Source of the DNA: a virus
Lineage: Duplodnaviria > Heunggongvirae > Uroviricota > Caudoviricetes
Direction: 5' to 3' (one strand)
Length of the DNA stretch: 59,292 bases
Virus record (IMG/VR): IMGVR_UViG_2850784384_000007
Notes under the pieces: model-generated
Seen by the model: the letters and a program-made list of their open reading frames with translations, nothing else
Told to the model about the DNA's origin: nothing
Database searches by the model: none
Program-made: the position numbers and the translations under genes
Part shown: piece by piece, positions 40,742 to 41,421 of the stretch
How the letters are laid out: each line of letters starts with the position of its first letter
How positions within the stretch are numbered: position 1 is the stretch's first letter

Positions 40742-40774
40742 ATCCCGCCCCCCCGACAGACCTGTGCTATCGGA

Positions 40775-40812
40775 AAGAAAAAAGGCCATCAGCAAAACTC
40801 TGATGGCCTGAA
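40775..40812 (-). terminator. intrinsic terminator-like hairpin upstream of the holin fragment
   Basis: Minus strand GGCCATCAGAGTTTTGCTGATGGCC followed by TTTTTTC. Confidence 0.45.
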
Positions 40813-41421
40813 TCACCTTTACCAATATTGTATGAAAAAACACGCACGACTAATTGACAATAATTTTCATTTCCATTAAAAAAGATCGCGTAGCATTCTT
40901 AATTCATGAGGAACTTTACCCGCCAGCAATCTGAGTAGCGAAAGCTGTTCATCCCCAATGTTTTTGCTGGCGGGTCCTTTTTTCTACGGTCCTCCTCCCC
41001 GGAGGGGGCATTTCATTATTTTTCTAATCGTTACTGGTGAGAAGGCGGAAGAAAAAGCCAGTTCTTCGCCCCTAAATAACAGCATGATTCCAGTCCATGC
41101 AAAATCTGATTTCCAGCTCACACATACCGAGCACTGTACAAAAAACCGCCAACCAAGGCAGTTAAGAGTGTGTTCCCGGGGTTTGCTTAGAATATTTTGT
41201 AAGTTGTCCGAAGAGATATTTACAACACCAGAATGATGCATTATCAGTCCCCTGCCAGAGGTTCACTACGTAACCTGACCGACAATGCACCATTCTGGTG
41301 CTGAAAAAAGAGCACTGGAACTGCAACAAAACAACATCACAGAACAGGAGATGGTAAGGAGTCAGACATTCCCACACAATATTGTGTCAGTGCAAATAAC
41401 AACCTTCGTCTCAAATCTCGC

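Follow-up and report, generated by a model that had tools for sequence, protein, structure and literature searches.

What fills the space between the tRNA genes and the holin gene in a late region of a lambdoid prophage? The question is raised by a 680-base-pair (bp) segment of a virus from the class Caudoviricetes (IMG/VR virus record IMGVR_UViG_2850784384_000007), the whole analysed stretch of which, 59,292 nucleotides (nt) long, is here called the window. The window contains two late regions. In the second of them, the late genes of which are read on the minus strand, the segment extends in transcript order from 41421 to 40742, between the tRNA-Gly gene, which ends at 41422 according to ARAGORN, and a class II holin gene. 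In the first late region, four tRNA genes of identical type (30599-30909) are followed by a spacer of 290 bp (30309-30598) and then by a different holin allele. In Shiga toxin (Stx) phages, the slot between the Q gene or tRNA block and the holin holds stx, and it is also the insertion site of morons (PMC4104026). A preliminary description, prepared from the sequence of the window, had correctly assigned the segment at 40742-41421 to this Stx-equivalent slot and had interpreted it as an insert, not present in the first copy, that might hold a structured RNA or a small protein. The difference in length between the two spacers is real, and they cannot be aligned to each other, though the first-copy spacer has its own unrelated perfect inverted repeats (30467-30480/30526-30539 and 30547-30557/30582-30592). 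The interpretation as an insert with toxin cargo has to be abandoned. The 680 bp are probably a non-coding leader that reaches from the tRNA block to the lysis genes of a lambdoid prophage remnant and originates from two independently circulating modules.

Origin and distribution of the segment

The whole 680 bp are present at 99% identity in only nine complete Escherichia coli genomes. In these genomes, the segment lies in intact prophages between tRNA-Gly and the full holin-RrrD-lysis cassette, and the Prokaryotic Genome Annotation Pipeline (PGAP) annotates no gene within it. The identical segment is found, for example, in the enteroinvasive E. coli strain CFSAN029787 (NZ_CP011416.1, 18118-18797). 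The holin-proximal part of the segment, module B (40742-41122), is matched over 375 bp (40748-41122, query positions 7-381) by approximately 1,500 records at 85-88% identity. Module B is carried by 1,451 of 5,426 complete E. coli genomes (~26%), including ~640 plasmid places, and every match to it ends at one point, query position 381, which corresponds to position 41122 of the window. An example of an extraintestinal pathogenic strain with module B is IHE3034 (NC_017628.1, 574765-575141). The tRNA-proximal part, module A (41123-41421, 299 bp, query positions 382-680), is matched by a separate set of 223 genomes at 60-80% identity, all of the matches being chromosomal and beginning beyond 41122. 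Module A is always located in phi80-like late regions, where it directly follows tRNA-Gly and precedes holins of unrelated types, and it is also matched in phages SerU-LTIIb and vB_EcoS-683R6 and in the phi80 prophage of DH5alpha (NZ_CP026085.1, 2579900-2580650). The sequence that SerU-LTIIb has in common with the window is the tRNA trailer, not the toxin genes. The end points of the matches and pairwise alignment place the mosaic junction, a feature without strand, at 41118-41126. Judged from these comparisons of sequence, the 680 bp are not a cargo insert but consist of two phage intergenic modules of an ordinary kind, with the join at about 41122; module A accompanies the tRNA-Gly cassette, in phi80 and SerU-LTIIb as well, and module B accompanies the class II holin. 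Different leader modules account for the difference between the two late regions of the window. Differences in the length of the Stx slot between prophage copies can thus reflect shuffled non-coding leader modules, not cargo genes.

The hairpin with a T-run that the preliminary description had reported upstream of the holin is present. It is a predicted intrinsic terminator of the minus strand, detected by a scan at 40773-40809, with a 10-bp stem at 40809-40783 and a T-run ~40 nt before the holin start codon. The fold has an energy of -23 kcal/mol (z = -3.9). Equivalent terminators precede the class II holin after unrelated upstream sequences, and in one locus (L017) the terminator directly follows the stop codon of a cargo open reading frame (ORF). 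As far as sequence comparison can tell, the terminator ahead of the holin is a general feature of the leader of this holin, not of an insert. The GC-rich stem-loop with a U-run that characterizes intrinsic terminators is predicted at one further place of the minus strand, 41163-41144, at the end of the tRNA operon discussed below.

Among the fetched upstream regions of related holins, the spacer type of the first copy is the commonest, accounting for 19 of 63 distinct sequences. A terminator-like CGCCCGCTTTTGCG followed by a T-run is located on the minus strand within 30309-30598, ahead of the first-copy holin. The presence of long inverted repeats and a terminator in the first-copy spacer as well suggests that the arrangement itself is kept. 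Module B also occurs without the holin, as a fragment flanked by insertion sequences (IS), at positions 3001-3344 of two other loci (L303 and L304). One holin-less module B adjoins iss and Rz/Rz1 remnants on the 146-kb plasmid pTB201, and another has as its neighbours Rz and that end of a pap island which contains papI/papB. An origin of the segment from the nmpC/ipeX region of DLP12 has been rejected, since the nmpC-essD spacer of K-12 does not align to the window. A near-match search of the phage database returned no match to the segment, and a distant search of it gave partial matches only, at 71-74% in the tRNA trailer together with a 45-nt match at 93%. A full-text search of the literature for distinctive sequence strings of the segment found none of them.

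A candidate small RNA on the opposite strand

It is plausible that module B carries a small-RNA-like gene of ~95 nt that is antisense to the late operon. The promoter-like site of this unit (40854-40882), read from the sequence of the plus strand, consists of TTGACA (40854-40859), a spacer of 17 nt, and TAAAAA (40877-40882). A simple promoter scan missed the site because the scan demands a T at position 6 of the -10 box. The candidate small RNA (sRNA) occupies 40889-40983 of the plus strand, the whole unit being 40854-40983, and was recognized by its inverted repeat, its fold, and a conserved stem with a T-run. Its 5' part is AU-rich; the 12-bp stem (40918-40929/40964-40975) that follows is perfect and encloses an 8-bp stem with a GAAA loop, and CCUUUUUU comes after the stems. 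The structured 3' end begins ~40 nt after TAAAAA, and the stem-loop at 40918-40975 plus the U-run in CCTTTTTT constitutes a predicted intrinsic terminator of the plus strand. The candidate sRNA folds with an energy of -34.2 kcal/mol (z = -3.9). Because it is encoded on the opposite strand of the late operon, it is fully complementary to the leader of the late messenger RNA (mRNA). The TTGACA-17-TAAAAA promoter and the strong terminator would bracket a ~95-nt plus-strand RNA belonging to the holin cassette, as indicated by sequence signals and position. In addition to its complementarity to the leader of the late mRNA, this RNA could be active in trans.

Four lineages of module B have been compared: the type found in the window, a chromosomal type of extraintestinal and avian pathogenic E. 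coli (ExPEC/APEC), a plasmid type located beside iss, and a pap-island type. The overall column identity of the four is 87% (~13% differing). Both hexamers, the 17-nt spacing, the 3' arm of the stem, 11 of the 12 positions of its 5' arm, and the T-run are unchanged in all of them. The T-run follows the 12-bp stem on the plus strand only, and the combination of an exact TTGACA, a spacer of 17 nt, and TAAAAA, located upstream at the distance of an sRNA promoter, is invariant in the four lineages. Both features argue against the explanation that the plus-strand unit is a chance or decayed arrangement, in which the stem would be either a leftover terminator or a structure in the leader of the late mRNA, the TTGACA would be incidental, and module B would persist by nothing but hitch-hiking with the holin and iss. 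Such an arrangement is nevertheless possible, if somewhat doubtful, and several observations weigh for it and against an sRNA gene. The sole substitution in the 12-bp stem, found in the plasmid lineage, replaces G by A; it disrupts the pair on the plus strand, whereas it would give a G.U pair on the minus strand and therefore fits a minus-strand hairpin better. Several neighbouring hairpins stay paired on the minus strand through C to U changes. On plasmids and in the pap island, module B is an IS-flanked remnant beside iss or Rz fragments. The -10 box of the candidate promoter agrees with the consensus at 4 of 6 positions only, the 5' end of the candidate sRNA is inferred, not mapped, and the four lineages are too alike for covariation. 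In addition, the candidate sRNA is without homology to any of the validated sRNAs against which it has been compared, as set out below for each of them.

Validated antisense sRNAs that occupy the equal slot of related prophages speak against chance or decay. PasA and PasC (EcOnc51/52) are Hfq-dependent prophage sRNAs of enteropathogenic and enterohaemorrhagic E. coli (PMC8550237; bioRxiv 10.64898/2026.05.13.724894). They have been validated, with coordinates given in Table S6 (Pearl Mizrahi et al., PMC8550237), and pasA, pasC, and pasD1 directly adjoin the holin-lysozyme operon (Zhu et al., bioRxiv 10.64898/2026.05.13.724894). Mapped on E2348/69 (L005, L007), PasA and PasC are antisense to the late operon and located between an esterase gene and the holin. 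The unit in the window resembles them in its position beside a class II holin-lysozyme operon, in the same slot between cargo and holin, and in its antisense orientation. The sizes are similar, with 79-85 nt for PasA/PasC and a predicted ~95 nt for the candidate sRNA. All have a TTGACA -35 box and a terminator with GCCAGC(A) in its 5' arm, followed by a U-run. However, the terminator loop of the candidate sRNA is much larger, comprising 34 nt with an inner stem. The distributions also differ: module B is common in ExPEC and is found on ~640 plasmid records, whereas the matches to Pas sRNAs are almost all chromosomal.

Homology of the candidate sRNA to PasA/PasC appeared plausible by eye, from the shared TTGACAA, CATG.GA.G, GCCAGCA, and CGAAAG, but failed in formal comparisons. 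An nhmmer profile built from 20 PasA/PasC variants has no match at 40854-40990 even at E <= 100, and a PasA/PasC covariance model (R1) run with filters off has none at the site of the candidate sRNA at E <= 10. Local alignments to PasA and PasC, evaluated against shuffled sequences, give z-scores of 0.66 and -0.70, in comparison to 59 for the alignment of PasA to PasC. Because these tests fail, the candidate sRNA is a positional and architectural analogue of PasA/PasC and not a member of their family.

Convergent sRNA genes are found at the lambdoid moron site downstream of pR' (Tree et al., PMC4104026), and the sRNAs described from moron sites further include AsxR/AgvB with EcOnc27, STnc100/PasD, and PapR (PMC4104026; PMC4546395; Rfam RF02076). 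The organization of the segment resembles that of the convergent pairs in that a predicted RNA of the late strand, with a terminator at its end, is opposed by a predicted antisense small RNA with a terminator of its own, both of them between pR' and the lysis genes. However, the late-strand partner in the window is the trailer of the tRNA operon and not STnc100. Searches for the individual families likewise count against the sRNA gene. The ~42-nt 3' motif of AsxR/AgvB (GUAUCUCAUGC..UUGCCCGAACCCACUCGGGC; PMC4104026 supplement) is not matched in the window when up to 3 mismatches are allowed. STnc100 (RF02076) is not matched within 40000-42500 at a limit of E <= 1, nor anywhere in the window at the gathering score; as a positive control, the same family scores 114.5 bits in the AR0086-type prophage (L002), directly beside module B. 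The ends derived from the published PapR primers and the 181-nt PapR sequence, which was recovered with the published cloning primers from a viral-contig locus (L241), match positions 5414-5492 of the AR0086-type prophage and nothing in 40742-41421.

PapR had been suspected for two reasons: one island has module B close to papI, and the strain distribution of PapR is the same as that of module B. The identity of the candidate sRNA with PapR has been rejected, since PapR maps elsewhere, beside STnc100, and is absent from the window. In the Qin-like AR0086-type prophage, STnc100 (5492-5680, late strand) and a PapR-like 3' half (5414-5492, opposite strand) are convergent, share their end point, and are located immediately beside module B. 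The UUUACCCGCCAGCAAUCUG of the candidate sRNA, at 40912-40935 of the plus strand, resembles the complement of nt 74-96 of papI, the published PapR target site. Alignment by eye gives 11-12 contiguous pairs with one bulge. The energy of the duplex between the candidate sRNA and papI is -56.9, in comparison to a mean of -51.3 (standard deviation 5.9) for shuffled sequences, which is not significant in a test that is poorly suited to long sequences.

A second hairpin, CCUCCUCCCCGGAGGGGG, follows the terminator of the candidate sRNA at 40991-41008 on the plus strand, where it was detected by a terminator-like scan; it is poorly conserved on this strand in the AR0086-type variant. A late-strand promoter proposed by a scan at 41043-41015 has been rejected, since its spacing is not conserved among the variants.

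The tRNA operon trailer and its long hairpin

Module A forms the 3' trailer of a prophage tRNA operon that is self-contained, as shown by the predicted anatomy of the unit, which consists of a promoter, four tRNA genes, the trailer, and a terminator. A promoter-like site found by a consensus scan, TTTGCA-18-TATTAT (41741-41770, minus strand), is located outside the segment and ends 9 nt before the first tRNA. Identical -35 and -10 boxes occur at equal distance from the tRNA in the first copy of the window and in a related locus (L010), where the sequence of the spacer differs. At the other end, an intrinsic terminator identified by a terminator scan at 41138-41163 of the minus strand, with AACUGCC, a UUGGUU loop, GGCGGUU, and a U-run, closes the operon. 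A homologous terminator of the form AACCGCC-N6-GGCGG-T7-9 follows the hairpin in nearly all of the loci listed. In the terminator of the window (AACTGCC...GGCGGTTTTTT, 41163-41138), pairing is kept through a U.G pair, and one locus (L171) has a compensatory CCGTC/GACGG variant. A palindrome search located a small hairpin within the trailer, formed by ACACA, a loop, and UGUGU (41374-41387, minus strand), which is kept in relatives. The relatives have GCGUA...UACGU or CGCA...GUGG in its place, RNAalifold pairs the corresponding columns, and the exchange of ACACA/UGUGU for GCGUA/UACGU is covariation.

The 17-bp inverted repeat with a spacer of ~40 nt that the preliminary description had placed at 41226-41300 exists, with 17-nt arms at 41226-41242 and 41284-41300 that match in 16 of 17 positions and are separated by 41 nt. 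It is a part of a longer structure, since the repeat extends to 31-nt arms (41219-41249 and 41277-41307) that are 84% complementary. A repeat search, folding, and an alignment of 23 distinct variants define a hairpin of the minus strand at 41213-41313 that has ~30 main-stem pairs and a 3-bp apical helix. The stem continues outward by U-A pairs, UUUUAC with GUAAAA, and an unpaired CCUGGCAGGG, located 3' of the apex, is near-invariant among the variants. The preliminary description had proposed folding the repeat; the minus strand folds with an energy of -50.8 kcal/mol (z = -5.7), which is equalled by none of 200 shuffled sequences, and the plus strand with -34.5 kcal/mol (z = -3.6). The hairpin core has been found in 73 distinct loci, 68 of which include enough upstream sequence for its distance from the tRNA to be assessed. 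In 65 of the 68, including phi80, the core is 124-143 nt after the 3' end of tRNA-Gly. The exact core occurs in only one species-representative genome, that of Escherichia ruysiae.

Selection acts on the long hairpin as RNA, namely on the strand of the late transcript, as shown by the pattern of substitutions in the aligned sequences. RNAalifold recovers the stem from the alignment. When 33 named pairs are evaluated in the 23 variants, 95.1% of the cells pair on the late strand and 75.8% on the opposite strand, and sliding the 3' partner by 1-3 columns lowers the pairing to 35-60%. The excess of late-strand pairing is due to G.U pairs, which fill 158 cells of the hairpin columns on the late strand in comparison to 11 on the opposite strand. 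Seventeen pairs vary one-sidedly yet remain paired, and three have compensatory changes. Two properties of the data reduce the weight of these numbers: the search pattern fixed 16 nt of the core of the 5' arm, so that its variation is under-sampled, and the hairpin sequences are related, which inflates the shuffle statistics. The suggestion that the segment may hold a structured RNA is supported by a conserved strand-specific hairpin, next to which stands the sRNA-like promoter-terminator unit of module B.

The long duplex is probably an RNA processing or stability element, most likely in the form of a putative RNase III-type site, although a protein-binding or stabilizing element could explain the hairpin equally well. 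A substrate of RNase III is a mostly continuous duplex of at least ~20 bp that the enzyme cleaves; the hairpin has a predicted and conserved duplex of ~30 pairs, the cleavage of which is conjectural. RNase III processing hairpins are known from phage transcripts, such as those of the lambda N-leader and sib and the T7 R sites. By analogy, the hairpin in the window may have the same role, since its imperfect duplex is long (more than 20 bp), contains an internal loop, and is positioned between functional units of a polycistronic transcript; however, it has no sequence relationship to the hairpins of lambda and T7. A regulatory RNA, 3'ETS-leuZ, is reportedly cut from the trailer of a chromosomal tRNA operon, as Lalaouna et al. 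are said to have found in 2015. The trailer in the window is comparable in that it lies between the last tRNA and an intrinsic terminator, is co-transcribed, and would be releasable by processing of the tRNA 3' end. By contrast, 3'ETS-leuZ has ~50 nt, whereas the trailer has ~270 nt and is dominated by the ~33-bp duplex.

In the proposed mechanism, a sigma-70-type promoter 9 nt before the first tRNA would drive the four tRNAs. The transcript would run through the small hairpin and the ~33-bp hairpin and stop at the terminator at 41163-41138. An RNase III-type site at the hairpin may separate the tRNA precursor from the downstream RNA or protect its 3' end; alternatively, the released trailer could itself be a stable RNA. 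In lambdoid late control, polymerase modified by Q reads through terminators to the lysis genes. The terminator ahead of the holin would be a second barrier after that of the tRNA operon, and the lysis genes would be silent unless Q-modified polymerase reads through.

A moron is a promoter-gene-terminator insert in the late operon (Juhala et al. 2000 as cited in PMC4104026). The tRNA operon has the promoter-cargo-terminator anatomy of a moron because it possesses its own promoter-like site upstream and a conserved predicted terminator downstream, and it is located inside the late operon between Q/pR' and the lysis genes. However, the cargo consists of tRNAs and a structured trailer, not a protein gene, and the 680 bp are the tail of that unit and the leader of the holin.

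RNA genes and terminators in the moron or leader region of lambdoid phages are well known, and the two elements described here are unnamed in Rfam, in PGAP annotations, and in the literature searched. Neither the long hairpin nor the plus-strand unit of module B is represented by a family in Rfam. The comparison to Rfam proposed in the preliminary description yielded, for the segment and its hairpin, noise-level matches to microRNA precursors with E-values of 0.04-0.14, far below the gathering scores. According to a more far-reaching reading, which is unlikely, the trailer with its ~33-bp hairpin and CCUGGCAGGG bulge would represent an undescribed family of stable phage RNAs, released from the tRNA precursor in lysogens and acting as a regulator, either a sponge or seed RNA or an RNase III-gated switch between tRNA expression and lysis read-through. 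The ~95-nt unit would then be a further undescribed sRNA of the Hfq type, present in a quarter of E. coli genomes and beside iss on ColV-type plasmids. The prophage regions from Q to the lysis genes are known as nurseries of host-rewiring regulatory RNAs, including AsxR, AgvB, PasA-D, PapR, and STnc100. If expressed, the elements of the segment would add to this set one widely spread member, found in ~26% of complete E. coli genomes and beside iss on virulence plasmids, and one tRNA-linked structured RNA common to phi80-like phages.

It is very improbable that the long inverted repeat acts as DNA, whether by binding a protein as a palindrome, by forming a cruciform, or as a hotspot of the recombination that made the mosaic junction. 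The palindrome is within ~100 bp of the junction, and boundaries of phage modules often coincide with such sequences; however, the junction and the repeat do not coincide here, and the position of the repeat is fixed relative to tRNA-Gly and the terminator. The strong strand asymmetry, both in G.U cells and in paired cells (95% vs 76%), with nearly every substitution being of a type that preserves G.U pairs on the late strand, also disfavours a role of the DNA, because symmetry at the DNA level would not select for late-strand G.U pairs.

The preliminary description had noted short ORFs only, and this is accurate: those of the segment encode 61-92 amino acids and are located on both strands. 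Searches of Pfam and PHROG with these ORFs gave no match, and with respect to toxin or protein cargo of the Stx or LT-II type, the segment has no conserved ORF and no recognizable protein family. The ORFs at 40984-41241 (minus strand) and 40958-41236 (plus strand) span the junction at ~41122 and therefore cannot be conserved, and a third ORF, at 41162-41377 (minus strand), is broken by indels in relatives. The micro-ORFs common to the window and the AR0086-type variant, one of 10 codons (MKCPLRGGGP) and one of 16 codons, differ by non-synonymous changes only. A small protein, whether a moron-type product of 60-90 amino acids or a micropeptide, can be dismissed as extremely improbable on these grounds, the 63-amino-acid hypothetical protein that PGAP calls in the AR0086-type variant notwithstanding, as the window does not have its ORF open and the segment is free of PGAP annotation in the nine near-identical genomes.

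Neighbouring features of the window

Upstream of the non-coding leader in transcript order, the second late region includes a DUF1133-type Q gene (41921-42442, minus strand), the 5' end of which has been replaced by an IS end, giving a fusion ORF. A tR'-like hairpin with a T-run (~41850-41822, minus strand) is located after the Q gene and ahead of the tRNA block. The four tRNA genes at 41422-41731 (minus strand), found by ARAGORN and the Rfam tRNA family, are a Met or Ile tRNA with the anticodon CAT, Arg-TCT, Thr-TGT, and Gly-TCC. On the other side of the segment, the ORF list contains the first ~30 codons of the class II holin (40649-40741, minus strand, ATG at 40741), which is cut by an IS600-type element; the uncut holin, present in a related prophage of enteroinvasive E. 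coli (L001), has 71 amino acids. The second late region is thus an IS-bounded remnant, delimited by the Q fusion ORF (41921-42442) and the cut holin (40608-40741). Q and the holin are both cut by IS. Expression would still be possible for the self-contained units only, namely the candidate sRNA and the tRNA operon. The surviving pieces of the IS-eroded remnant would be self-contained RNA units.

The tRNA gene with the CAT anticodon (41655-41731, and 30833-30909 in the first copy) is called tRNA-Met by ARAGORN, and the identical gene in the enteroinvasive E. coli prophage is called tRNA-Ile by PGAP. The latter call would imply ileX-like, lysidine-dependent reading. Searches of Rfam detected two copies of the C4 antisense RNA and isrK pair above gathering scores, at 36051-36239 (minus strand) and 50759-50947 (plus strand). 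This pair is the immunity and antirepressor control module of the P1/P7 type, and it is also present in the enteroinvasive E. coli prophage at 10318-10506. An ALIL pseudoknot (RF01497, 116 bits) at 25983-26099 of the plus strand is the frameshift signal of an IS3-family element.

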